DNA from: Haliotis rufescens
Taxonomy: Eukaryota
Direction: 5' to 3'
NCBI RefSeq assembly: GCF_023055435.1
Contig: NW_025964112.1
Span: 42,718,001 to 42,782,000, forward strand
Length of the DNA: 64,000 nt
The stretch's first letter is position 1. Each line of letters starts with the position of its first letter. Made by a program: the position numbers and the translations under genes. This document shows, in pieces, positions 4,937 to 58,610 of this stretch. The notes beneath the pieces are model-generated. The model worked only from the letters and a program-made list of their open reading frames with translations. It made no database searches and was not told the DNA's origin.

Positions 4937-5163
4937 AGTGAGTGAGTTGGTTTTAACGCCGCTTTTAACAGTATTCCAGTCACATCACGGCGTGTCAGCT
5001 TAATGTGGGAGAAAAGCCCCAAGTGATGCAGGTCTCAGACGTTTACCACATCGGTGAAACTCACGAGAACGGGTATGGTGCTGACAAACCTAGAAACATA
5101 ATAGGGGCGAACCGGGATTCGAACCCACAATCATAGGTTTCTGCCGTGCCCAAGGGATGCAAC
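4937..5163 (-). mobile_element. SINE family B (tRNA head, V-domain-like), 5'-truncated
   Basis: B box GGTTCGAATCCC, CTTTTCTCCCACA core and (ACTC)n tail; matches the other B copies. Confidence 0.85.
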
Positions 5164-7150: not shown

Positions 7151-8073
7151 AAGAACTTTTGCCGACGTCACAGGCTGTCTTCAGGGCCATCCGTGCCACG
7201 CTTAAACTCTGCTGCCCTGTGGTGGCATAGGACAGGATATCCTTCCCTGGTGCTGTGCTCATATTTTCATGATGGATTTTGATGTTAAGCCCTTTTCCGC
7301 AACAGTCAACAGAAACTATACCTCTCAGTTGATTTCATCATATGATTGATTTTCATTTGAAATTGTTTTCTGACGTGACCTGTAACGGGATGTCCCTAGA
7401 TCTTTGTTTAGCGGAGGCGAGCTCAAAGATCTGATTTTAATGAGATCGATATCATGTCTGAAGAGAAACTAAGAATAACTGCAAGTTCTCAGTTATGTGA
7501 ACATGTCCAATAATTCAACAATATTTCAATCAATAAAAGCGACAAAACATCGTCATAAATATATTTGCAAAACACACAGCCCATTGTACAATCCTGGGGT
7601 ATATCGTAACGTTTTTATGAATAATCATTAAGAATGGTGGTACAAGGTGTATTGCATCACTAGAAATGTGACATTATCAAATATGTCAATATATGTAAAG
7701 TGTAAATTGAAACACGCAGACATACAGTGAAATCTCGAAATCATTCGGATTAACAGAGTTTCGTAAATTTCTCTTATATATGCGCTGCTTTACAAACGGG
7801 ATTTCACGTTTATATCTCCATAAACGGAAACAATATGATATTCAACAATACGAAATCAGTGATTTTTGCGCAATAATGCACATAGCACAGTCCATTATAT
7901 TATCAGCCAATCAGTAAACAGTGTTCCGCTAGTGGGCTTGGCTAAATATTTACCTGTTGAAGGAAACATGAAATTACTTGCTTAGCACATAAAATGCCAC
8001 AGGATCACTTGCAATTATATACGGATTGACAAAGATGAGAGAATTGAGCACCAAAAGTAGCATGTCTAAAATT

Positions 8074-8278
8074 ATAAGAGGCGACTAACGGGATCGGGTG
8101 GTCAGGCTCGCTGACTTGGTTGATACATGTCATCGTATCTCAATTGCGTGGATCGATGCTCATGGTGTCAGTCCCCTGATTGTCTGGGAAAGACTCGATT
8201 ATTTACAGGCCGCCGTCATATAGCTGGAATATTGCTGAGTGTGGCGTAAAACAAATAAACAAACAAACAATCAACCAA
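8074..8278 (+). mobile_element. SINE family D, 5'-truncated
   Basis: TAAGAGGCGACTAACGGGATCGGGTGGTCAGG...GCTGGAATATTGCTGAG tail, (AAAC)n. Confidence 0.85.
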
Positions 8279-8789
8279 GTCACATAGCATGAACACCCGA
8301 TCCATTGAGTCGCCTCTAACTACCAGTAAAGGTTGTTGTGGAGCAATTCTTACCAGGAATCCACACGGGACACAACTGTGAGATCCATTATTATACTAAT
8401 ATGGATATGAAAGGATCTGTCATGTTAAAAACGTCGAAGCGGACAGGAAACAATACTATCTATCAACACTACGCCATAGAAAGTATGTTCATTTCTGTGA
8501 AATGTTTAATTTCGATTTCGTGTGTGATACAGTTGTCTGAATTTCGTTTTTGCATCGACAATTCGTAATATAATGAAAAACATGAAAATAACATTGATTT
8601 TTTCGTCTTTCGTGAAACTGAAAAGGCACTGTCCAGGATTAACATGGATAAGTACAGTGTATCCCATTATTCAAAAGTAATTGAAGCCAAATCTATTCAC
8701 AAACATTCAGTGTCAGGACTTGATAGTACCAGTCCTACATGTAAATGTAGGAAACGCCCTCAGGGGCGACGATGATGTCAGATGAAGTA

Positions 8790-9075
8790 GTGAGTGAGTG
8801 AGTTGGGTTTAACGCCGCTGTCAACAGTTTTCCAGACATATCGCGGCGTGTCAGCTTAATGTGGGAGGAAAGCCCGAAGTGATACAGGTCTCAGACGTTT
8901 GCCACTTCGGTGAAACTCACGAGAACGGGTATGGTGCTGACAATGACAAACCTAGAAACATAATAGGGGCGAACCGGGATTCGAACCCACAATCATAGGT
9001 TTTTGGGGTGCCCAAGGGACGCAACTCTGCACAGTGAATCGCGGCGCCTTAGGCGACTTGGCCACCCATGCCCCC
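8790..9075 (-). mobile_element. SINE family B, full length
   Basis: tRNA-like head; TSD TCAGATGAAGTA/TCAAATGAAGTA. Confidence 0.9.
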
Positions 9076-10202: not shown

Positions 10203-11330
10203 CATTGTGATCAAGACAACATAATCTTGAACATGACAATATGCTTCGAATGGCTCTATTGTGATCAAGGCAACATGAATTTGGACTTGATTATATGCTC
10301 TGAATGTTCTATTGTGATCAAGGCCACATGATCTTGAACTTGACAATATGATCTGTATGTTCTATTGTGATCAAGGCAACATAATCTTGGACATGACAAG
10401 GTGCTTTGAATGCTCTAATGTGATCAAGGCAACATGACCTTGGACTTGATTATATGCTCTGAATGTTCTATTGTGATCAAGGCAGCATGATCTTGAACTT
10501 GACTATATACTCTGAATGCTCTATTGTGATAAAGGCAATATTATCTTTGACTTGACTATATGCTCTGTATGTTCTATTGTGATCAAGGCAACATAATCTT
10601 CGACATGACAATATGCATTGAATGCTCTATTGTTACCAAGGCAACATGATCTTAGACTTGATTATATGCTCTGGATGCTCTATTTGGATTAAGGCAACAT
10701 GATCTTGAGCTTGATTATATGCTCTGAATGCTCTATTGTGATCAAGGCAACATGGACTTGGACTTGTCTATATGCTCTATTGTGATCAAGGCAACATGAT
10801 CCTGGACTTGATTATATGCTCTGAATGCTTTATTGTGATCAAGGCAACATGGACTTGGACTTGTCTATATGCTCTGAATGCTCTATTGTGATCAAGGCAA
10901 TATTATATTTGACTTGACTATATGCTCTGTATGTTCTATTGTGATCAAGGCAACATGATCTTGGACATGAAATATGCTCTGAATGCTCTATTGTGATCAA
11001 GGCAGCATGATCTTGAACTTGACTATATACTCTGAATGCTCTATTGTGATAAAGGCAATATTATCTTTGACTTGACTATATGCTCTGTATGTTCTATTGT
11101 GATCAAGGCAACATAATCTTCGACATGACAATATGCTTTGAATGCTCTTTTGTGATCAAGGCAACATGATCTTAGACTTGATTATATGCTTTGAATGCTC
11201 TATTGTGATCAAGGCAACATGATCTTGGACTTGACTATATGCTCTAAATGCTCTATTGTGATCAAGGCAACATGATCTTAGACTTGATTATATGCTCAGA
11301 ATGCTCTATTGGGATCAAGGCGATATGGAC
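10203..11330. repeat. 53-bp minisatellite, about 21 copies, in GPCR intron 1
   Basis: Unit CTATTGTGATCAAGGCAACATGATCTTGGACTTGACTATATGCTCTGAATGCT. Confidence 0.95.
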
Positions 11331-12676: not shown

Positions 12677-14090
12677 TCTTCAGTCACTCTGGTTGGTGCT
12701 GACTCTCCACCGTCAGTCACTCTGATTGGTATTGATACTCCACCGTCACTCACTCTGGTTCGTACTGACTCTCCACCGTCAGTCACTCTGGTTCGTACTG
12801 ACTCTCAACCGTCAGTCACTCTGGTTCGTACTGACTCTCCACCGTCAGTCACTCTGGTTCGTACTGACTCTCCACCGTCAGTCACTCTGGTTCGTACTGA
12901 CTCTCCACCGTCAGTCACTCTGGTTCGTACTGACTCTCCACCGTCAGTCACTCTGGTTCGTACTGACTCTCCACCGTCAGTCACTCTGGTTCGTACTGAC
13001 TCTCCACCGTCAGTCACTCTGGTTCGTACTGACTCTCCACCGTCAGTCACTCTGGTTCGTACTGACTCTCCACCGTCAGTCACTCTGGTTCGTACTGACT
13101 CTCCACCGTCAGTCACTCTGGTTCGTACTGACTCTCAACCGTCAGTCACTCTGGTTCGTACTGACTCTCGACCGTCAGTCACTCTGGTTCGTACTGACTC
13201 TCCACCGTCAGTCACTCTGGTTCGTACTGACTCTCCACCGTCAGTCACTCTGGTTCGTACTGACTCTCCACCGTCAGTCACTCTGGTTCTTACTGACTCT
13301 CCACCGTCAGTCACTCTGGTTCGTACTGACTCTCAACCGTCAGTCACTCTGGTTCGTACTGACTCTCAACCGTCAGTCACTCTGGTTCGTACTGACTCTC
13401 AACCGTCAGTCACTCTGGTTCGTACTGACTCTCAACCGTCAGTCACTCTGGTTCGTACTGACACTCCACCGTCAGTCACTCTGGTTCTTACTGACTCTCC
13501 ACCGTCAGTCACTCTGGTTCGTACTGACTCTCAACCGTCAGTCACTCTGGTTCGTACTGACTCTCCACCGTCAGTCACTCTGGTTCGTACTGACTCTCAA
13601 CCGTCAGTCACTCTGGTTCGTACTGACTCTCAACCGTCAGTCACTCTGGTTCGTACTGACTCTCCATCGTCAGTCACTCTGGTTCGTAGTGACTCTCCAC
13701 CATCAGTCACTCTGGTTCGTACTGAATCTCCATCGTCAGTCATTCTGGCTTGTGCTGACTCTCCGCTGTCAGTCATTCTGACTTGTGCTGACTCTCCACT
13801 GTTGGTCACTCTGGGTCATAATGACACTCCACCGTCAGTCATTCTGGCTTGTGCTGACTCGCCGCTGTCAGTCATTCTGGGTCATGATGACGCTCCACTG
13901 TCATTCACTCTGGTTGGTACTGACAATCCACTGTCAGTCATTCTGGGTCATAATGACACTCCACTGTCATTCACTCTGGGACGTACTGATACTCAACTGT
14001 CAGTCACTCTTGTAGATAATGGTACTCCGCTGTTATAGTCAGTATAGTTCGAATTCATATTTCAAGGTCAGTCATTCTGGTCATGTACCC
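12677..14090. repeat. 33-bp minisatellite, about 43 copies, in GPCR intron 1
   Basis: Unit GTCAGTCACTCTGGTTCGTACTGACTCTCCACC; homogeneous core with degenerate ends. Confidence 0.97.
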
Positions 14091-14425: not shown

Positions 14426-14435
14426 GTAAATAATC

Positions 14436-14698
14436 ATTTGTTTGTTAGTTTGTTGTTTAACGCTGCAGTGAGCAATATTGCAGCTATATGACTGCAGTCT
14501 GTAAATAATCGAGTCACACAACCAGACAATCTATTGATTGATATCATGAGCTCCGATCCACGCAATTGGGATGCTATGATATGTATCTCAACCAAGTCCG
14601 CGAAAATGACCACACGCTCCATTTTAGGACAAATGTAGTCGCCTTTTACGACAAACATGGGTTGCTGAAGACCTATTCTAAACCGGATCTTCACGGGT
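14436..14698 (-). mobile_element. SINE family D, full length
   Basis: Begins ACCCGTGAAGATCC on the minus strand; shared tail. Confidence 0.85.
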
Positions 14699-14899
14699 AG
14701 AGGTTAATATATTCACAAATGCCACATGTGTATATCCTGTGGCAGGAAACGGTCACCTTTTCGCGAACACCTGGTATCATGCTTATGATATAGTGTGCAT
14801 CGTACAAAACAGATGCTACTTACAAAGAGATGAAAAATAGTTTATAGAGGCAATCAATTAGTATGTTGGTATTATATAAACTCTTAAATTATTCTGGAC

Positions 14900-16863: not shown

Positions 16864-16974
16864 GAGCGACCGCCTCCGTGGCTTAGTGGTAGAGCGTCTG
16901 CCCTGAGAGCGGAAGGACGGGGGTTCGATCCCTGGCCGCGTCATACCAAAATACGTTAAACTTCATTCACCTCA
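16864..16974 (+). mobile_element. SINE family C, internally deleted mini-copy
   Basis: tRNA head fused directly to the tail; TSD CCTTACCCAGA. Confidence 0.8.
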
Positions 16975-18064: not shown

Positions 18065-18230
18065 GGGGCGGTCGGGTAGCCTAGTGGTTAAAGCGTTCGC
18101 TCGTCACGCCGAAGACCCGGGTTCGATTCCCGACATGGGTACAATGTGTGAAGCCCATTTCTGGTGACCCCCGTCGTGATATTGCTGGAATATTGCTAAA
18201 AGCTGCGTAAAACCATACTCACTCACTCAC
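18065..18230 (+). mobile_element. SINE family A (tRNA-Asp-like head)
   Basis: A and B boxes, GTC anticodon-like loop, (ACTC)n tail; perfect 13-bp TSD TCCTGCGTCTGAA. Confidence 0.92.
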
Positions 18231-18628
18231 TCCTGCGTCTGAACACTTGTCTGTATATATATTTGTGACGAAACCCATCACAACAAAGTTATATCGCCAT
18301 TTTAGGTTTGGGATTTTATATCGGGATGACGTATCTTTTCAGCTACACCCCAAACCAGATATTTTTTAAATTATATCTATGAGCCTAAATAGTTCTTTAA
18401 AAAACCAACACTTTTATCTGCCAGCCATTTTTCTTCAACTGGCTGAAGCATAATTATATTTTAAAGATTTTTCTGCGACAATTTATTTGTTTCGATAAAA
18501 TCCCAACCGCAATACCCCCCACTGCCCCGCCTCCGGATAAAGAATTGCCGTCCCTCAGTTTTTCTATTATAGTTTTCATCCATTTGTCACATAAGACTAT
18601 ATCCTGTGATTGATTTATTGTATTTCAG

Positions 18629-19627: not shown

Positions 19628-20653
19628 GAAGAGTTGTCTACCCTTGACCGCTGTTTGTAATTTGATGTGATGCTTAACAGGAACTTGCGTTTGCGATCTG
19701 AAGACAAGTAAATATGTTTTCTTATTGGACAGGATGATAACGGACTGTTCGCGGTTTCATATCTGACAGACTAAGCGAAACCGTACAAGAATCGTAGATA
19801 CATGGTATCATCCTATATTTGGCAATAATATACATCCACAAAGTCATGGATAGGTGTTTCTTTCAGAAATGTCACAATGCACAATATTTATTTTACCTGA
19901 AAGTGAGATTGACCAATCAGAGAACAGAACTACTAACCCCACATGAGCCCGTATACCGCCAGCAAAAATCCATGATGGTTGTTACTGACCTAATATGCGG
20001 CCGTATGCCGTCAGTAACAGCCATTTTGGATTTTCAAACACTCACCTCACATTCGTTGAACGACGCTGTTTTGTGTATTAATATTATTAATTGTTATGTG
20101 CAAAGGCATTACTTTTTGAAGAAACCACGTTCACGACTTTATTAATAAAAAAATCTCACAACAGAGGTTAGTGATTTACAAATAGCAACGTGATAGAGCA
20201 TAATATAGGATAATGTCACGAACAAGAAACGTGACGCCAATGACGTCACCTAGAATTCGATGAGGAAAAATGGGCTGCTATCAAGTTACAGTGGCTCGCA
20301 GATTTCTGATAAACTGGGAGCATTTCTGTGATAATTCTATCCAATTGAGCTATTAAACTTGTTTAAACGTTCACATTTGGTGTATTGTAGCTTCCAATGT
20401 TACCGTATGTGTTTACATTAAAACGTTGTGTCGGAAACATATGTACTGGTCCTGTTATTTATATCGGTTGTAAGTGTAAGTTTTCATTTTGACATGACAT
20501 GGGCGATAACGATTCTAGATAGTGTAAACATTCGGGATAATAAATTCATTATAATGTCTTTTGTTGCCGTATACGGTGTCATACTACGTAAGCACGCCTC
20601 GCCCAATATTTTTCTGCTAACCTAATATGACACCGTATACGGCAACTTAATAG

Positions 20654-20820
20654 AGTGAGTGAGTGATTATGTTTTTACGCCGCTTTTAGCAATATTCCAG
20701 CAATATCACGGCGGGGGACACCAGAAATAGGCTTCACACATTGTACCCATGTCGGGAATCGAACCCGGGTCTTCGGCGTGACGAGCGAACGCTTTAACCT
20801 CTAGGCTACCCGACCGCCCC
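20654..20820 (-). mobile_element. SINE family A
   Basis: Near-identical to the 18065 copy; TSD CAACT(T/A)AATAGAG. Confidence 0.92.
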
Positions 20821-22152
20821 CAACTAAATAGAGGATATTTCATGTGTCGAGAAAAATATCATGTTCCTCTCAAAGGAGATATAGGCAAGAGTGGCATAGG
20901 CAAGAGTGGCATAGGCACGAGTGAAAATGTCTCTTTTTTCCCCGTCACGAGAAGAGAGAAACATGATATCTCATGAGACAGATGGAATTTTCGATTTATT
21001 ATATACATTGTGTGTAGTCGACAACAGGAAAATTAAATTATTTAACTACTTAATGTAAAACCTGGAAACCTGGAAACCTGGAAACCTGGAAATTCTTTCT
21101 ACCTAACACACAGGGACGGTTCACAACCCCTCGTATTTGCGACTTAAAAAGTAGTTTTGTGTTTGCCAGAATTTAAAACAAAACAAAAATATTTAGGGTC
21201 ACGAAAATTCTTTATCATACATATGATATATATATATATATATATTTGATTATATACAAAATCTCCTTTAACAAAAAATATTCTTGAAAACTGCAAGACC
21301 GCTGTTGAAAGCGAAAGAATACACGCTGGTCAAGTCAAAAATGGCGCTTTGCGAAACGAAGTCTCAATTGAGGAGTTAAATAACAAATTTACAGTTTATA
21401 ACGAACATTTTCGAGGGAAAACAAACGACAAGAAGCGATATTGACTCCATAAATGACCAACTGTTATTATTTTGCCTTGTCAATATGGAACAAACGTAAA
21501 AAGGACGTCAACAGTTTGTGTACGGGCAAGACACTTACGATAAAGGGAGATAATTTGAGGGAGGTAACTCTTGTATAATAATAGTTCCGTCAAAGTGTTT
21601 TGTTCACAGCAATGAAAACATCTCTTTTCTCAACTTCAGAAAACTAAGTCTTTCACAATGAAATATATAATATAGACAACATAACTAATAATATCACGGC
21701 TCGCGCACCAGTGTATTGTTTCCGTCAAGCGCACGGCATTGTTGACGTCATTCGAATCTTATTGTAACGTGAGTCAGTGAGTCAGTGCTAATGACTGAGT
21801 GGGTCTTTGTGCATCGGTGAGTCGGTACGTGTGTCTATTTCAGGTGTGGACTAGTATTCTATTGGACATCTGTGTCATCAACCGTTGTTCTAAACAAAAC
21901 GCCAAATTTCATAACAATCCGTTTACACCATGCCTGCGAGTCAGCGAAATCTATCTTACTCAGCAGTCATCAGTATTGCAGCCGTCCACAGCAATAATTG
22001 AACAGCAATCAACCCATACTGATACGGAATCGTACTAACGACACCTTGTAAATAAAACTCTTTCATTTTTCATAAGATATATCTGCCATATGCAGAGTGA
22101 ATTGTACGATTCCGATCATGAGCATGTGTTTATGATTCACTATCAAATAGTG

Positions 22153-22509
22153 TGAGGTGTGAGGTGAAATGGGGTTGAATGTCGCGTCCAAGATTATTGC
22201 ACTTATATAGCGACGTGCATGTACGTGTGTGTGTTTGTGTGGCTGCTTGTACTAGTCCGGACTGATGCCGATTTATAGTGCTAGCTCACTGAGATACCAT
22301 GCCACAGTTTAACATGAATATCCCACTCAGACACAGTATACTGACTCCGAGCCGACCAGTCCTTGTTTTAGCCCCTTAAAGCCGAGCGCCAGTCAGGGTA
22401 ACAACAAGTACCATCTTGTAACGTCTTTTGGTATGACGCGGCCGGGGATCGAACCCCGGACCTTCCGCTCTCCGGGCGGACGCTCTACCACTAGACCACG
22501 GAGGCGGTC
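22153..22509 (-). mobile_element. SINE family C (Meta-domain-like), nested in a Naiad-type 3' motif
   Basis: tRNA head, AAGGACTGGTCGGCTCGGAGTCAGTATACTGTGTCTGAGTGGG core; flanks CTATCAAA..TAGTG. Confidence 0.88.
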
Positions 22510-22859
22510 CTATCAAAAAAATAGTGATGATACCAGGTGTTCACACACCTCATGTTGATAACACTGCAGTGTAGGCGAAAGTGGGCGTCCCCTAAAACCC
22601 TATCCCAGTGTTTGCCACCTCACAACATGCTCAGCCTGTTTCGGACACTGTAACCGCGACTAGACTACTCTATACGAAACATATACATCTTAATCTTTCA
22701 AACCCTGAACTCGACCATAAAAAGTAAACGCGAGAGAATAATCAGACTCGATTATCCACCGAAACAGATACCATTGGGCATAAAAGGCAAAATATTGAGG
22801 AAGATTATATGAATGGATCACTGAAAATCAGTCCTACGGGTATCACCCTCCACTCACAC

Positions 22860-23166
22860 GGGGTCACGGCTGGCCCAGTCGTCTGAGGCGCCGCGGTTCG
22901 CTGTGGAGAGTTACATGTACATGTACGTCCCTTGGACACGCCCGCAACCTATGATTGTGGCTTCGAATCCCGGTTCGCCCCTATTATGTTTCTGGGTTTG
23001 TCAACACCATACCCGTGCTCGTGGGTTTCACCGAAGTGGTAAACGTCTGAGACCTGCATCATTTCGGGCTTTCCTCCCACATTAAGCTGACACGCCGTGA
23101 TATAACCGGAATACTGTTAAAGGCGGCGTTAAACCCAACTGACTTACTCACTCACTCACTCACTCA
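22860..23166 (+). mobile_element. SINE family B
   Basis: Full length; TSD CTCCACTCACAC. Confidence 0.9.
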
Positions 23167-23582: not shown

Positions 23583-23896
23583 GGACCGCCTCCGTGGTCT
23601 AGTGAAAGAGCGTCTGCCCGGAGAGCGGAAGGTCGTAGGTTCGATTCCCTGTCGCGTCATACCAAAAGACGATAAAAGATGGTACCCTGCCTGGCGCTCG
23701 ACATTAAGGAGCTGAAACAAGGCCAGGTCGGCCCGGAGTCAGTGTACTGTGTCTGAGTGAGGTATCCATGTTAAACTGCGGTATGATATCTCAGCGGGCT
23801 AGTACTATACAAGTCCGGACTAGTACCAGTAGACACACACACATACACACGTCGCTATACAAGTGCAATAATCTTGGCTACGACGTTAAACTCACC
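23583..23896 (+). mobile_element. SINE family C
   Basis: TSD TCGTGTCACTCCGG. Confidence 0.9.
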
Positions 23897-28810: not shown

Positions 28811-29135
28811 CTTAAATGTTTGTAGAAAGAACTACATGTAATATAGTTTTGCTTGGTGAAAAAATGATCTCAATAGGATATTACTCCGGCATACATTTCA
28901 GTTCTCAGTTCGAAATCGTTTGTATTATGGAATATAGATGCTTGTGCGATTCATCCAATCAATTTTTGATTGTTTCAAATAATTATCATACGTCAGTGAG
29001 AAAGAATATGATCACTGTCGTGTATAATTGTTCTCTTTGCAAAGAGATTATCTAGTCATTGAACGAAAACAAATACGCACATTATGCAAGATAAGAGTTT
29101 CATCGACTCAGATACACAATCTAATATTACTAAAA

Positions 29136-29298
29136 GTGAGTGAGTGAGGCTTTACCTCGCATTTAGCAATATTCCAGCAATATCACAGCGGGGGACACCA
29201 GAAATTGGCTTCAAACATTGTACCCATGTGGGGAATCGAACCCAGGTCTTCGGCGTGACGCGCGAACACTTTAACCACTAGGCTACCCCACTGCCCCC
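29136..29298 (-). mobile_element. SINE family A
   Basis: Matches the other A copies; ATATTACT flanks. Confidence 0.9.
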
Positions 29299-29991: not shown

Positions 29992-30271
29992 GTATGAATT
30001 AGGGAATTTTCTCCCTTACACGTTGGTCTGGTAGTAGGCAACAGTAGTATGAATTAGGGAATTTTCTCCCTTACACGTTGGTATGGTAGTAGGCAACAGT
30101 AGTATGAATTAGGGAATTTTCTCCCTTACACGTTGGTATGGTAGTAGGCAACAGTAGTATGAATTAGGGAATTTTCTCCCTTACACGTTGGTATGGTAGT
30201 AGGCAACAGTAGTATGAATTAGGGAATTTTCTCCCTTACACGTTGGTGTGGTAGTAGGCAACAGTAGTATG
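29992..30271. repeat. 55-bp minisatellite, 5 near-identical copies
   Basis: Unit GTATGAATTAGGGAATTTTCTCCCTTACACGTTGGTATGGTAGTAGGCAACAGTA. Confidence 0.97.
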
Positions 30272-30699
30272 GATTTATGTCGAACTTAGGCTATGCGGCC
30301 AACTTCTCGACAAGGAGTTCCTTTTTCGGTTGTTATAACTTGAAATAGTTTGTGGAAAAGGGAACATTTTCCATAAAATAGTGAAAATATATATTACAAC
30401 ACCAGAGGATAACATTTGCATCCATAATACATATATCTTGGCTTTTTAAATTGGCTTACATGTATGTGACATTTACTGACATCAGTGTGTTCTCAAGATA
30501 AGATATTCATCATGCGACTCTTGCTCAAGATATGGTATTTGTAATACGACTTTTGCTCAAACGTTGTTTGAATATGATCACAACATTTTAGGCCTCATTC
30601 AATATTTCATTTTTTATCGCCAATAAGTGGACGATGCATTTCCAAGTTTGAGGCATCAGTGATAAAAATGCTTCCGATGCAATTCCTTATTTTGACCTG

Positions 30700-31270: not shown

Positions 31271-31284
31271 CCCGTTATCAAAGG

Positions 31285-31430
31285 ACCCGTGAATAGGTCT
31301 TCAGCAACCCATGCTTGCCGTAAAGGCGACTATGCTTGTCGTAAGAGGCGACTAACGGTTGATGCATGTCATCGATCCCAATTGCGTGGATCGATGCTTA
31401 TGATATCAATCACTGCATTGTCTGATCCAG
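31285..31430 (+). mobile_element. SINE family D, partial
   Basis: ACCCGTGAA..CAACCCATGCTTG..GGCGACTA with a duplicated hairpin. Confidence 0.8.
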
Positions 31431-31776: not shown

Positions 31777-32004
31777 TACCCGTGAAGATCCGTTTGGAAT
31801 CAACAACCAATGCTTTTAGTAAGAGGCGACTAACGGGATCGGGTGGTCAAGCTCACTGACTTGGTTCAAGCATGTCATGGTATCCCAATTGCAGAGATCA
31901 ATGCTCATAATGTCAATCACTGGAATGTCTGGCCCAGGGTCGATTGTGTACAGCCCGCCGTCATATAGCTGGAATATTGCTGAATGTGGCATTAAACAAC
32001 AACG
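31777..32004 (+). mobile_element. SINE family D, full length
   Basis: TSD TAAGACATG/TAAGATATG; starts TACCCGTGAAG. Confidence 0.88.
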
Positions 32005-32365
32005 TAAGATATGCTTTGATGCTCTATACTGTAGAAAAAGAAATGTGGTGAGCCTATCTTTTGCGACATTGTAAATTTGTGAAACCCATTTCTGGTGTCC
32101 CCCGCCGTGATATTGCTATGCTAGTGTTAAACGCGGCGTTAAACCTCACTTCAAAATGAACTACACGCAATTATATTCACTCACTGTATGAATAAACCAT
32201 TGCATGTTAACCCTTCAGTCAGAATTGTCTCTTCCTTCCTTCTTCTACCAAATCCATCAACTCCGCCTTGAGAGTGGGTCGTTGTTTGTATCCAGGAGAT
32301 TTTTTTATGTTTATACAGGTGTGTTTGCCGATCACATTCAGTGATGTTAGTTCAGTCTTTTGTTG

Positions 32366-32620
32366 CCCCGTGAAGATCCGGGTAAGAACTGATCTTCAGC
32401 AACCCATGCTTGTCGTAAGAGGCGACTAACGGGATCGGGTGCTCAGGCTCGCTGACTTGGTTGATGCATGTCATCGTATCCCACTTGTGTAGATCGATGC
32501 TGATGATGTCAAATACTGGATTGTCTGGCCGAGAGTCGAGTATTTACAGACCGCCGTCATACATCTAGAACATTGATGAGTGCAGCGTTAAACACATCCA
32601 ACAAAACAAAGAAACAAATA
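32366..32620 (+). mobile_element. SINE family D, full length
   Basis: TSD TCTTTTGTTG/TCTCTTGTTG; starts CCCCGTGAAG. Confidence 0.9.
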
Positions 32621-33072
32621 TCTCTTGTTGGGACGTCGTCAACATTCATCTGTAACGTCATTACCAATGAATGACGTCAACGTGAATTAATTGTAACAAC
32701 GCTATGATATTTGGTCATATAGCCAGAGCTGCTCCCTAAAACTGCCGCATCCACTGACCATGTACATGTATGTAATTACTAATGTCCTCGACAAAATCAA
32801 CCCATTGAAAACCATTTCAATGAACGATGGAGCGAGTAAGTTTATACGTCAGATTTTGTCCAAAACTACGACAAGGAAAGATCTATCACAAATATACCTT
32901 ATGCGTTTATCCATGTGGGGAATCGAAGTTAAACACAAGGCTACTCTACCGCCCATTAAATGTGTGGTTTAATTATCTTGATATCTCCAGTGGAGCTTAT
33001 CTTGAACTGTTTTGACTTTAAATCATGGCGACAACTTTATTAGTACTCAACGTTTTTCAATATTGGTTTCAG

Positions 33073-35260: not shown

Positions 35261-35529
35261 ACCATGCTGTTTCTGCAAATCTACATGTACAGAAGATAGT
35301 GACACCGTGTATCCTCCAGTCAACGTTCGTTTTCCAAACAGTGTAACTCTGCAACCTGTAATCTTCCACATCGACTTTGAGTAAGTCCCCGCCAATGTAG
35401 TAACTTCAACATTAGACTAGAGATACACATGTACGTGGCGGTTTCTTCCATTGTGCCCAGGTATTGTGGAGAAAGATTGGCCTGGTCAGCTTGCAAGAAA
35501 GATGCCGGCAAGCGCAGAATGGTTAGATG

Positions 35530-35860
35530 CGACCGCATCCGTGGTCTAGTGGTAGAGCGTCCGCCCGGAGAGCGGAAGGTTCGAGGTTCGATCCCCGGCC
35601 GCGTCATACTAAAAGATGGAACTTGTTGTTACCCTGTCTGGCGATCGGAATTAAGGGACTAAAACAAGGACTGGTCGGCTCGGAGTCAGTATCTAATACT
35701 CAGTCAGTATACTGTGTCTGAGTGGGGTATTCATGTTAAACCGCGGCATGGTATCTCTGTGTGCTAGCACTAGTACAAGCAGCCACACACACACGTACAT
35801 GCACGTCGCTATATAAGTGCAATAACCTTGGACGCGACGTTAAACTCCATTTCACCTCAC
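35530..35860 (+). mobile_element. SINE family C
   Basis: TSD TGGTTAGATGC. Confidence 0.9.
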
Positions 35861-41040: not shown

Positions 41041-41045
41041 AGTAG

Positions 41046-41297
41046 AGTGAGTAAGTGGGTGTAACGCCGCTTTTAACAGTATTTCAGTTATATCAAGGCG
41101 TGTCAGCTTAATGTGTGAGGAAAGCCCGAAGTGATGCAGGTCTCAGACGTTTACCACTACGGTTGAGCCCACGAGCATGGGTTAAGGGCTGACAAACCTA
41201 GAAACATAATTGGAGCGAACCGGGATTCGAACCAACAATCATAGGTTTCTGGCGTGCCCAAGGGACAGCGAATCGCTGGGCCGCCCGTGCCCCTTGG
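41046..41297 (-). mobile_element. SINE family B
   Basis: Matches the other B copies. Confidence 0.88.
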
Positions 41298-45249: not shown

Positions 45250-45303
45250 ATGAGGTAAATCGGGGTTTAACGTCCCGTTCAAGATTGCACGTATGTAGCG
45301 ACG

Positions 45304-45334
<31 letters not shown>

Positions 45335-45621
45335 ATGCGTGAAGTATGTGTGTGTGTGTGTACTAGTCCGGACTAATACCGAGTTTATAGTGCTGGCCCA
45401 CTGAGATACCGTGCCGCAGTTTAACACGAATACCCTACTCAGACAAAGTATACTGACTCCGAGCCGACCAGTCCTTGTTTTAGCCCCTTCATACCGAACG
45501 CCAGGCAGGGTAACAACAAGTGCCATCTTTTAACGTCTATTGGTATGACAGGGCCAGGGTTTGAACCCCGGACCTTCCTCTCTCCGGTCAGACGTTCTAC
45601 CACTAGACCACGGCGGTGGTC
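45250..45621 (-). mobile_element. SINE family C with internal (GCAC)n
   Basis: Full length; CAACC..CATGA flanks. Confidence 0.88.
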
Positions 45622-45978
45622 CAACCAACCATGACCTTGCCATATCGGAAATTAATATTTCCATCAAACAAGACTGTGTAAATTAATTTCAAAATGAGAC
45701 ATTACAAGTTAGCCTTACCCAGCTCAATTTCTACTATAATAGATCCAATTTATGTAATAATATCAACTATGGTACATGTCATTCGTAATGTGATTCTTAA
45801 TGAATGTGTATGAGACGAATTGATACCATGGAACTGATTGACTTTGGGTCCTTTAGACAGAGGCGGCGCCATTACCTCAACAATGATAGGCTAGACGTCG
45901 TTACACATTAAGGCCCACATTTCCGTGTAGGACCGCATTTTGATCTGAAATAGCTCATGTCAATATTCTCTTCCCCAG

Positions 45979-46232: not shown

Positions 46233-47926
46233 TTGGAAGAAAATACCTAATACTTGTATAGTATATCAACATCCACATATGGACCACCTGTCATGAGATT
46301 TTCTAATTTCCACATTATGGACTTAAACGTCAATGATGAAATAATGTTAATGATTTGAACATTTTTAAAAATAGATAATATACTTTATTGCTTTTGCCAA
46401 AGATGAAATTAGCAATTGACCGACGATGTGACGTTGTGGGAAGCGGTGTGGCTTTGAATTGTTCGAAAAGTATGAACTGTACGTTGGACATTCTGGATGT
46501 ACTGTGAAAATTGAGTATCGAAAAAAATCCGCGACACAAACCTTCAGAGGTTCAATTGGATGTTCTGAAGCACTGACGGAAAAATATCCACTCTCGATAC
46601 AATTCCTAGCCACCACTCCTGAAATGATCGGTCCCTTAGCGACAAACACCTTTTTTTAAACATTTGAATTTCGCTTAAATGATCTGAAAAAATCTAAAAA
46701 TTAATAAGAAAATATACTTCATTTATTTTATATAAGCTTTTCGAACTTACATACCATTTTCACAGATTTCAGTATTTTTAAACAAATAGTGATGCAGTCA
46801 AAATGGCACCCATGTCTTCTTATTGCAATGCTTTTATGCTTCTATATATGCTTAGAGTATATAGCATCAATTATGCAAGAAGTGTTCATTTCGCATGTTT
46901 CGTAAATTAATGTTTGCGCAGTGATTCATAGAATTCAAACATGAAACAGCGAACTTTTTTTATATATAATCTGTCGATGCTTAAAGCAACACCGTGCGGT
47001 AAATTGTGAAGCATGTTTACAAAAAGGGCAGCTGTTACATCAGCTCTTACATCACTAAGTGCCTTACCGGAAACCACATAATGCTGAAGCTGATTAACCC
47101 GGATAAAAAAGTCAGACATTGTCTGACACTCCCCCGACAATGCCGGGTCCAACTACTGCTAAGTATATATACCTCATACCATTGCCTTTGTTTCCATATT
47201 AAATATATTGATATTGTTTTGTTCATCAAATTAAAAATATTTATTTCCAATCACAATTTCTATATGTATATTGTTTATGCTTGAGTTATGATCTATTGTG
47301 TTTGGTAAAAAAATTGATTTTAACTTAAATTGTTACGTTTCTTTTGAAAAGATTTATGAAAAATCTGTTTTATTATTTTAATTAAACATGGAATTAAAAT
47401 CATATTTACACATACTCCCTGTACGGCTTTTATTAGAAATGTAACATTTACAAGTGCATATGGTACCGTACATATATGTACAGTGAAATCACGTGATTCC
47501 CGAAAGAAAACTTTCCGAACATTAGGAACACCTATGTTATACACACATTAAAAAAAATCGTTAATTAAGAAGTTAACCCAAACGACATCGTGTTATAAGT
47601 CCGGATAAATGGTTCACTTTAAACAATTACACGGACATACAGAGTGATTTAAGATAAGGTAATCGGACTGATTACTATTGAACAATTTGATGTAACTTGC
47701 AATTGCATAGAACAGCTTTGAAGGTACTTAGACTTGTACCGGTACAACACCCCTAGATGGGGATGCTGAGGTAGTTCAGACCTTATAAAACGAGGACAAC
47801 GTTTAGAACTCCCCAATTCCATAGCCAAATCAAATACAATTCTCGTGGCAACATTCCAAACAACCTGACACATTCACTTAACTGGACACTATTCCTACCA
47901 AAAGTTGAAGCGTACTGAATATGATT

Positions 47927-48208
47927 GAGTGAGCGAGTGAGTTGGGTGTAACGCCGCTTTTAACAGTATTCCAGTTATATCACGGCGTGTCAGCTTAATG
48001 TGGGAGGAAAGCCCGAAGTGATGCAGGTCTCAGACGTTTACCACTTCGGTGCAACCCACGAGCACGGGTATGGTGCTGACAAACCTAGAAACAAAATCGG
48101 GGCGAAACGGGATTCGAACCCACTATCATAGGTTTCTGGCGTGCCCAAGGGACGCAACTCTGCACAGCGAATCGCGGCGCCTTAGACGACTGGACGACCC
48201 GTGCCCCC
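47927..48208 (-). mobile_element. SINE family B, full length
   Basis: Near consensus; TSD-like TACTGAATATGA/TATTAAATATGA. Confidence 0.9.
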
Positions 48209-49040
48209 GTATTAAATATGACAACACGGTATGACATGAACATCATTCGACTCTTGTTTGACCAAGGCTAAGATATATAAGGTATCAGTAAAGCTTTCAA
48301 AACGTGTTATGGTTTCCGTATTTTTTTAGATGAACAGTTGACTTGCCTTTGCGTGTGTTTGTGACGGATGCCAGTGGAGTAGGATACGTTCACCTTTTCG
48401 CGAACACGGGAAAGGTTTTGTCGCTTTTGTCGCTTTTATTATACAAATACAAAAATAGCGATCAATGTTTAGAGATCATATACCGGGTTGAATGTTGACA
48501 TGAGCGGTGTTAATCCACTTTCAGAGCCGGGCCAACACAGATGAGTCGTTTTCCTTGCATACGTTCTTGTGACAGTACAACCATCTAGCGAACAGTGTTT
48601 GAGATGTAAATATTCTGTCAAATTACATAAATATTAAATATTTCTTGGGACCGTTTGCGTCAGTAATTCTAACGTAAAACCTCCCTGTTTCAAGGTGATT
48701 GTAAATGTTGACAATGGGTCCGAATATGATATGTAATAGTTGTTAATGTGTCCCATACTCACTTGTTTACACCCTTTTACAGAAAGTTCAATTTCGATTT
48801 ATCAGTTGAAACTTTAATTTTAAACATGTGTACTTTCCGGAACTAAATCTGATTATTATAAGAAGATATGGTGTTAAAATGTTACACGGAAATGTAACTC
48901 ATTCCATGCGCCTCAGACGTGTTTGAAACATGTAACTATATTTGGTTTGTCATGATGATCAAACACTGAAATGTGGTTTGAATTGACAAGGCAGGACGCC
49001 AAAGTTTCTTTACCTTCATATAACACACTTAATTCACACA

Positions 49041-49302
49041 GGGGGCACGGTCGTCTAAGGCGCCGCGATTCGCTGTGCAGAGATGCGTCCCTTGGGCACG
49101 CCAGGAACCTGTGATTGTGGGTTCGAATCCCGGTTCCACCGATTATGTTTCTCGGTTTGTCAGCACCAGATCCGTGCTCGTGGGTTGCACAGAATTGGTA
49201 AACGTCCGAGACCTGCATCACTTCGGGCTTTCCTCCCACATTAAGCTGACACGCCGCGATATATTCATATTATGATATGGGTAAAATTGCTTCAAATATT
49301 GA
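49041..49302 (+). mobile_element. SINE family B, tail truncated
   Basis: Matches the B consensus. Confidence 0.88.
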
Positions 49303-58337: not shown

Positions 58338-58610
58338 GGCCCAGACGGGTGGCCCAGTCGTCTAACTCGTCGCGATTCGCTGTCCCTTGGGCACGCCAGA
58401 AACCTATGATTGTTGGTTCGAATCCCGGTTCGCCCCAATTATGTTTCTAGGTTTGTCAGCCCTTAACCCATGCTCGTGGGCTCAACCGTAGTGGTAAACG
58501 TCTGAGACCTGCATCACTTCGGGCTTTCCTCCCACATTAAGCTGACACGCCTTGATATAACTGGAATACTGTTAAAAGCGGCGTTAAACCCAACTCACTC
58601 ACTCACTCAC
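58338..58610 (+). mobile_element. SINE family B
   Basis: Matches the B consensus. Confidence 0.9.

Follow-up and report, generated by a model that had tools for sequence, protein, structure and literature searches.

What sets the precise 5' ends of tRNA-less SINEs, and of many LINEs, is the question raised by a SINE copy of Haliotis rufescens (GCF_023055435.1, contig NW_025964112.1). The copy lies in a stretch of 64,000 nt, here called the window, which is the whole piece of DNA analysed (positions 42,718,001 to 42,782,000, forward strand). In an earlier reading of the letters, hereafter the original prediction, it was described as having a fixed 5' end, no Pol III boxes and, in place of a tRNA head, a structured RNA module built around a closing stem and a kissing loop, perhaps a ribozyme. 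We followed this head through the window, the genome and other sequence collections.

The SINE family in the window

Six family matches to the motif named in the original prediction were found in the window, against 0.01 expected by chance, and blast with the 32366 copy returned six copies or fragments (Table 1). Full-length members measure about 245-255 nt. The 3' tail of the copy at 32365 ends in (CAAA)n-type repeats, and the copy is flanked by a weak TSD of 10 bp (32356-32365 / 32621-32630, 9/10 matching). The three copies originally described as bounded by TSDs do have them, but all are weak (9/10, 8/9 and 8/9). The head of the full-length copy reaches 69.4 bits with our model R1, in whose training set this copy is itself included. 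For a typical copy (L006), the local score of the tail was above all 200 shuffles with 5 of 5 LINE tails. The 31777 copy was rightly assigned to the family, but the 3' strand of its first hairpin is lost. A duplicated P3 unit, as in the partial copy, is carried by 10 of 69 family copies.

Table 1. Features of the SINE family in the window, and viral copies of its head module (window positions unless a locus is named)
Feature	Position	Strand	Description
Full-length SINE copy	32365..32620	+	LINE-derived head, body of unknown origin, LINE-like 3' tail
Head module	32365..32434	+	homologous to the LP or 'Nimb-17 homology' segment
Pseudoknot stem S1	32367..32382	+	5' CCCG (32367-70) pairs with loop CGGG (32379-82), 4/4 pairs
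Pseudoknot stem S2	32372..32397	+	32372-78 with 32391-97, 7/7 pairs
A-rich loop	32383-90	+	conserved AGAAY
Second domain	32403..32433	+	P2 (32403-05 with 32431-33), GCNU/UAA internal loop, P3
P3 hairpin	32412-26	+	near-invariant sequence
LINE-like tail, ~40 nt	32560..32600	+	similar to the 3' end of the intact APE-RT-RNase H LINEs of the genome
Second copy	31777..32004	+	head damaged by internal deletion, 18.7 bits
Third copy	14433..14699	-	retains the pseudoknot domain and P3 but has another 3' strand in P2, 59.2 bits
Partial copy	31284..31430	+	subfamily with duplicated P3 unit
5'-truncated copy	8071..8275	+	first base inside P3
Degenerate head	8298..8372	-	tail-to-tail with the 8071 copy, 34.9 bits
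Viral copy L334			toti-like, Pfam RdRP_4, 69.0 bits
Viral copy L342			Pfam RdRP_3, 63.7 bits
Viral copy L340			Pfam RdRP_3 and nodavirus-type capsid, 43.5 bits
Viral copy L330			Pfam Peptidase_A21 capsid, 38.1 bits
Viral copy L618			S-domain coat, 38.5 bits
Viral copy L324			53.1 bits
Viral copy L332	L332:3954-4027		212-kb DNA-virus contig, NAD-dependent ligase nearby; module intact, intergenic, 118 nt downstream of one stop codon and ~146 nt upstream of the following start, 62.7 bits

A sample of 400 kb, drawn from fixed positions throughout the genome, contains 106 merged family matches, of which 33 have the native 5' end and 33 consist of the tail only and may belong to other families. Extrapolation from this sample gives ~1.1e5 full-head copies in the genome. 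None of the 5 family copies tested has an A box, in contrast to the two tRNA-headed SINEs of the window, taken as control, which carry A and B boxes. The fixed 5' end without Pol III boxes is borne out.

The family is not an undescribed one. Judging by its sequence, it is of the type published as LP-SINE by Matetovici (2016; PMC4758252), an outcome that the original prediction had itself named as counting against it, and is in itself ordinary. It lacks a tRNA head and A/B boxes and has TSDs and 3' tandem repeats. According to the available parts of that paper, LP-SINEs occur in Haliotis, Littorina, oysters and scallops, and their first ~70 bases are common to the LINEs Nimb-17_LMi, I-3_DR and RTE-9_CPB.

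Several other repeats were observed. A MESC-type tRNA-headed SINE (16866-16960, 22150-22510 on the minus strand, 23584-23895, 35520-35860, and 45250-45630 on the minus strand) has internal (CA)n and a CACCT end, as given for Haliotis in PMC4758252, and a second tRNA-headed SINE of ~170 bp lies at 18065-18232, 20653-20820 (-), 29135-29297 (-) and 32064-32150. An abundant, young repeat of ~230 bp (85-97% identical copies at 4937-5163, 8785-9075, 22860-23155, 41045-41276, 47926-48208, 49035-49263 and 58345-58609) is probably a further SINE, which at 41045-41276 would lie on the minus strand. Tandem arrays at 10204-11321, 12680-14010 and 29992-30275 have units of 53, 33 and 55 bp; the 33-bp array, with 40 copies, 0% indels, a unit that is a multiple of three and strong GC skew, could be a coding repeat. 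Parts of the SINE itself are found in tandem elsewhere, as ~52-bp units of the 5' pseudoknot domain ending in one complete SINE (L021; G000:C223:39873479-39876572) and as a 96-bp head tandem (L022/L023).

Fold of the head

All complementarities named in the original prediction are present in the 32366 copy (closing stem 4/4, first hairpin 8/8, kiss 4/4, GCA/TGC 3/3, last hairpin 5/5), but the closing stem and the kissing loop get no support from covariation across families and cannot be kept as the conserved fold. Comparison of the copies points to another one, a 5' H-type pseudoknot (S1, one-base L1, 7-bp S2, A-rich L3) followed by P2, an internal loop and P3.

We aligned 20 non-viral heads, and the resulting model holds S2 and P3 only. 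In a model-guided alignment of 26 copies, 7 of the 7 S2 pairs change on both sides (51 cells vs 18.2 in shuffles), and P3 is invariant; since P3 was the search anchor, its invariance may be owed to the selection of copies. The near-invariant P3 may point to protein binding or catalysis.

S1 and P2, which are outside the model, were tested by duplex energy, comparing segments of the same copy with segments permuted among copies (the energies are approximate). Column-wise pair counts were not used for these two stems because of register shifts between families, and 3 of the 26 rows (L084, L181 and L172), whose 5' domain is missing or misplaced, were left out. In the 17 non-viral rows, S1 has z -2.2 and P2 z -4.5, compared with +1.0 for the closing stem and -0.6 for the kiss; in the 23 rows including viruses, the values are -3.8, -5.5, +0.5 and -1.6. 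The test was also thinned by kinship, with one member drawn 40 times from each of 16 related groups assigned by eye. S1 (z -3.9) and P2 (z -3.75) stood out in these 16 lineages, with no support for the closing stem (z +0.5) or the kiss (z -0.8). The 10 non-viral groups gave -2.6 for S1, -2.7 for P2, +1.0 for the closing stem and +0.45 for the kiss. A held-out copy (L198) has, by eye, an S2 of 7 bp, an S1 of 4 bp and a P2 of 8 bp. With S1, S2 and P2 supported by covariation, the broader proposal of a structured RNA module in place of the tRNA head stands.

The originally proposed junction may nevertheless exist as a conformer in the SINE family of the window, because in its own sequence P2 is short (3-4 bp vs 5-8 bp in other families) and the stabilities are about equal (summed duplex energy in L002 of -22.8 kcal/mol for the junction vs -21.0 kcal/mol for the conserved fold). 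The MFE fold of the exact 73-nt stretch is this junction (z -2.64 vs shuffles), with no significance for longer stretches (82 nt, z -1.04; 102 nt, z -0.41) or for other SINE copies (z -1.06 to -1.38). A second kissing partner, GGGT at 32437-40, was dropped, being absent from other families.

At the gathering threshold, Rfam recognized in the whole window only 3 tRNA-like heads of other SINEs, and E-value searches with the SINE head, the LINE head and six viral loci returned nothing for the module. The hatchet, twister, pistol and hammerhead covariance models gave no match. An HDV-like reading of the SINE head was discarded, with no Rfam HDV match at E<=10 and a different strand order in the supported fold. 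Threading the head by hand as HDV, twister, pistol or hatchet gave no fit (hatchet after PMC6561176). The placing of the head outside the HDV, hammerhead, twister and pistol consensus was correct in this respect.

The module in LINEs

An intact two-ORF LINE with a zinc-knuckle-like ORF1 and an APE-RT-RNase H ORF2, located on a contaminant scaffold, begins with the head. Its RT has 131 scored matches in the H. rufescens genome, from which 20 LINEs with long open frames were taken, and the module was found by blast and HMM in 20 of these 20, ~500-600 nt before ORF1. The partner LINE, whose 5' UTR had been proposed as a place to look, therefore does carry the module. By domain content these LINEs would be placed in the I-group, and the Nimb assignment is taken from PMC4758252 and not from a tree.

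The 5' end is one step further upstream in 18 of the 20, which start 58 nt ahead of the module with an HDV-like, ribozyme-shaped unit, a putative ribozyme by its sequence. It pairs 7/7, 7/7 and 3/3 and has a 7-bp P1 with a G-U first pair, P2, P3, L3, GG and the J4/2 cytosine. With the Rfam HDV-F-prausnitzii model it gives E 0.0028 and 27.5 bits, below the gathering score of 44. The unit is flush with the LINE 5' ends; it is minimal, with almost no P4, and most intact I-group LINE families begin exactly with it (for example L490:1128-1185, G000:C334, about 45,127,300, and 17 others of L486-L505). PMC5786205 lists six clades with ribozymes, and this I-group clade is not one of them.

We chose 30 copies of HDV-bearing families only by the module and downstream sequence. 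The whole unit is kept in 28, and the other two are cut inside it. That not one copy starts at the module speaks against self-cleavage or initiation at the module edge, and would be expected if the module were passive behind a 5'-OH end. In a second LINE family (L499 type), the HDV-like unit is absent in 30 of 30 copies.

Element 5' ends

The SINE was originally said to start with (T/C)(A/C), but the usual start is G-A-CCCG (G in 46 and A in 44 of 69 distinct 5' ends). A clear TSD (score >=9) was seen in 12 of the 69 copies, and in 9 of these 12 it stops just before the G position. This first G could be a reverse-transcribed cap. More generally, elements start 0-3 nt before S1 with a first base that depends on the family (G in the SINE of the window, U in L499, mostly A in the L135 family), and in 8 terminal copies the distance from the start is 20-36 nt to AGAAT and 48-68 nt to the P3 motif. 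The 5' end follows structure (S1) and not a fixed spacing to conserved boxes, since the start-to-box spacing varies by 16-20 nt and the first base differs between families.

In the LINE family without the HDV-like unit, 29 of 30 copies start one base ahead of S1, at a U. The family shows no sign of a copied cap, since position -2 is G in no more than 5 of the 30 copies, among which are some duplicated loci.

Three small-RNA runs, whose organism code is unlike that of the best-matching loci, gave 9, 116 and 13 reads, mostly antisense; these few reads show no pile-up at the SINE 5' end. Small RNAs of ~30 nt, mostly antisense to the SINE body, share one start site (L010:1416-1458) in two runs (63 and 9 molecules) and are piRNA-like.

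Copies in viruses and in other records

An exact 17-mer scan hit at least 120 metagenome loci, spread over many unrelated repeat families, and 5 viral contigs. With model R1, built from 20 non-viral heads only, the full module reaches 38-69 bits in one DNA virus and six lineages of RNA viruses, compared with <=28.5 bits for loci with the anchor only. The RNA-virus copies are all on the coding strand, 4, 9, 22, 72, 99 and 196 nt after the last stop codon. Two occur in tandem, in L324 (the second copy being cut by the contig end) and in L618 (a second variant lying upstream). The long ORF of L324 has no Pfam or PDB match, and its reading as an RNA virus rests on the source collection and polymerase-like motifs seen by eye. 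S1 and S2 of the viral copies show compensatory changes of their own. Since unrelated RNA viruses keep the module in their 3'UTRs, its function should be at least partly at the RNA level.

A profile search of 1.14 Mb of sequence from the viral scan found at least 6 distinct motif sequences in 7 contigs, the rest being anchor-length matches. Scans allowing variation in P3 detected no stem variants and 1 new full match among 67 loci.

In prokaryote genomes, 10 of 46 pattern matches reach at least 35 bits, and 5 of these 10 are training sequences. We claim no bacterial occurrence, since the inspected matches look like eukaryotic contamination (a whole, intact LINE in L195; contig ends in L176 and L198). 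The prokaryote records with an animal retroelement head (L195/L465, L176, L177, L194, L198, L169, L180, L181 and L172) are likely host contamination or chimeric contig ends, and a mid-contig match of 36 bits in a prokaryote record (L200) is probably due to chance. In another metagenome family (L084:782-924 and ~16 related copies), an insertion with (TAAG)n repeats breaks up the pseudoknot, but P2 and P3 are retained and show an A-U/U-A swap when compared with sister families.

What the module may do

We tentatively suggest, as a leading explanation still short of probable, that the head is an xrRNA-like element which blocks 5'-to-3' exoribonucleases (Xrn1/Xrn2) and so sets and protects the 5' end of the element. 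A host transcript would read through a SINE copy, an exonuclease would trim the RNA up to the base of S1, and the trimmed RNA would be reverse-transcribed by an I-group LINE with the same 3' tail. Such a block would fix the start of the element with neither promoter nor self-cutting, and in viruses it would leave a short 3' subgenomic RNA. LINE families with an HDV-like front would be released by the ribozyme, and the module would be retained there as an additional barrier or for another role.

We favour an exonuclease block because it fits the 5' end of the SINE, that of LINEs with or without ribozyme, and the viral 3'UTRs. The pseudoknot engages the 5'-most strand and the viral position is the 3'UTR, as in xrRNAs; flavivirus xrRNAs occur in tandem. 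In the cited accounts, xrRNAs typically lie in 3'UTRs (PMC10520033), the Xrn1 stop in plant-virus xrRNAs is at the base of P1 (PMC12397905), that in coremin one nucleotide upstream of hp1 (PMC10520033), and the model of coremin combines an H-type-like pseudoknot with a hairpin that is required downstream (PMC10321173). On the other side, Xrn1 is not stalled by ordinary frameshift pseudoknots of the H-type, not even by those to which a hairpin is added (PMC10321173), no sense-strand Rfam match to the flavivirus, LT or coremin class was obtained (one antisense Flavi_ISFV_xrRNA match, E 2.6, is at chance level), and the extrapolated ~1.1e5 full-head copies are a lot for read-through transcription alone. 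In addition, the supposed stall product was never seen integrated in the 30 copies of HDV families, and the first G of the SINE could be a copied cap.

That G is also among the points in favour of an internal RNA polymerase II promoter, in which the head DNA would initiate at its own first base and the RNA fold would have a separate function. We regard this as unlikely, though worth keeping in mind: a SINE without Pol III boxes needs a source of transcription, a promoter was proposed from position alone by Matetovici (2016), and the trypanosome Pr77 head is both promoter and ribozyme, the L1Tc case being cited by those authors as a parallel (PMC4758252). However, a promoter cannot explain copies in the 3'UTRs of RNA viruses. 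Transcription from the module start would also cost the HDV-bearing LINEs their first 58 nt, which 28 of 30 keep; L499 starts at U with no extra G, and the start-to-box spacing is not constant.

The head could instead act in translation, as a cap-independent element or a binder of ribosomes or initiation factors: 3'CITE-like in viruses, IRES-like in the LINE, and a ribosome-docking head in the SINE, as the Alu domain is. In LINEs it stands directly behind a ribozyme-shaped unit that would leave uncapped RNA, ~500-600 nt before ORF1; in the DNA virus it is ~146 nt ahead of an ORF; the viral 3'UTR position fits 3'CITEs, and the near-invariant P3 suggests a binding partner. But the SINE encodes nothing, such an element gives no reason for HDV-less elements to start exactly at S1, and we know of no CITE class that the head resembles. 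On balance, a translation element seems rather doubtful.

The original prediction leaned towards a ribozyme, and with the corrected fold this would be a new self-cleaving class cutting one base 5' of S1. The 5' end referenced to structure with a free first base, which fits cleavage at the 5' edge of HDV- or hatchet-type (PMC6561176), and the highly conserved junction residues speak for it, and ribozymes, in some cases in tandem, are known from linear RNA viruses (PMC13725137). The case is weakened by the HDV-like unit lying directly upstream in most LINE families: self-cleavage at the 5' edge would delete that ribozyme in daughter copies, and none of the 30 copies begins at the module, although it looks intact. 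Described viral ribozymes are mostly in UTRs ahead of ORFs (PMC13725137), whereas the viral module copies are 3' of the last ORF, where cleavage would cut off the genome end, and no Rfam ribozyme matches at E<=10. We consider this class improbable.

Least plausible by far is that the LINE protein recognizes the module (for 5'-end capture or second-strand synthesis) and that the viral copies are host sequence captured passively, since, although the module is in 20 of 20 intact LINEs examined and is kept by many independent SINE families, the compensatory changes of the viral copies in S1 and S2, their same strand and their same 3'UTR position in tombus/noda-like, tetra-like capsid and toti-like viruses imply selection without a LINE protein.

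What is apparently new is the fold supported by covariation and the presence of the module in the LINE 5'UTRs of this genome, in six RNA-virus 3'UTR lineages and in a DNA-virus intergenic region. No paper with the motif of the module was found in the full-text literature (subscription papers, Repbase notes and figures being outside its scope). Among the papers listed for LP-SINE and its three LINE names, only the 2016 one was relevant, and the listings for xrRNA joined with retrotransposons or with these virus groups, and for RNA motifs joined with both, contained no report of the module. In its available text, a 2024 survey of bivalve SINEs (PMC11481361) does not mention 'ribozyme' or 'LINE promoter'.

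An exonuclease block would make the module part of a previously unmodelled nuclease-blocking RNA class, traded between the 5' ends of animal LINEs and SINEs and the 3'UTRs of unrelated RNA viruses and defining retrotransposon 5' ends by exonuclease stalling; we hold this wider view possible, with some reserve. If true, retrotransposons would have, in addition to internal promoters and self-cleaving ribozymes, a third means of defining their 5' ends, and viral xrRNAs would have a cellular counterpart. A natural experiment is available in this one genome, where some LINE families have an HDV-like ribozyme upstream of the module and others lack it. Be it xrRNA, ribozyme or translation element, any outcome would be a new RNA family common to viruses and animal retrotransposons.

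Comparison with known systems

The nearest relatives are the abalone elements Hdi_LP and Hmi_LP (PMC4758252), which, like the SINE of the window, are tRNA-less, ~255 bp long and provided with a ~70-bp LINE-derived head. The likeness to Hdi_LP is one of length and description (about 245-255 nt vs 255 bp). By eye, the scallop 'Nimb-17 homology' segment of the same paper shares with the head the AGAA loop, the CCC run, the P3 motif and the following GGGATC; the AATATA hexamer given there reads AATATT in the SINE of the window. The available text of PMC4758252 proposes a promoter and describes no head fold, viral copies or upstream HDV-like unit.

Pr77 / L1TcRz of the trypanosome elements L1Tc, ingi and NARTc (PMC4758252) is likewise a short 5' module of autonomous and non-autonomous elements. 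However, Pr77 is itself HDV-like ribozyme and promoter, while in abalone the HDV-like unit is a separate 58-nt upstream piece, absent from the SINE. Hatchet resembles the module in its boundary at the 5' edge of the first stem and in having a hairpin and then a stem with an internal loop. It differs in its four nested stems P1-P4, with conserved C20-A22, U28-G31, G63-G66 and A73-A75, and no 5' pseudoknot is described for it in the available text (PMC6561176).

The last comparison is with coremin (xrRNA-C) and the ST9a-type xrRNAs. The module has another sequence (the coremin sequence printed in PMC10520033 is absent from the head), larger stems (S1 4-6 bp, S2 7 bp) and an extra P2/P3 domain; unlike coremin and the plant-virus xrRNAs, it is found at retrotransposon 5' ends, and both its nuclease resistance and a ring-like fold around its 5' end, the feature by which xrRNAs are defined, are putative. 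As described in PMC10520033, PMC10321173 and PMC12397905, those RNAs are, like the module, compact, conserved and present in unrelated virus families, mostly in 3'UTRs. They also share with it a small pseudoknot with a downstream hairpin and a boundary at, or one base before, the first stem.
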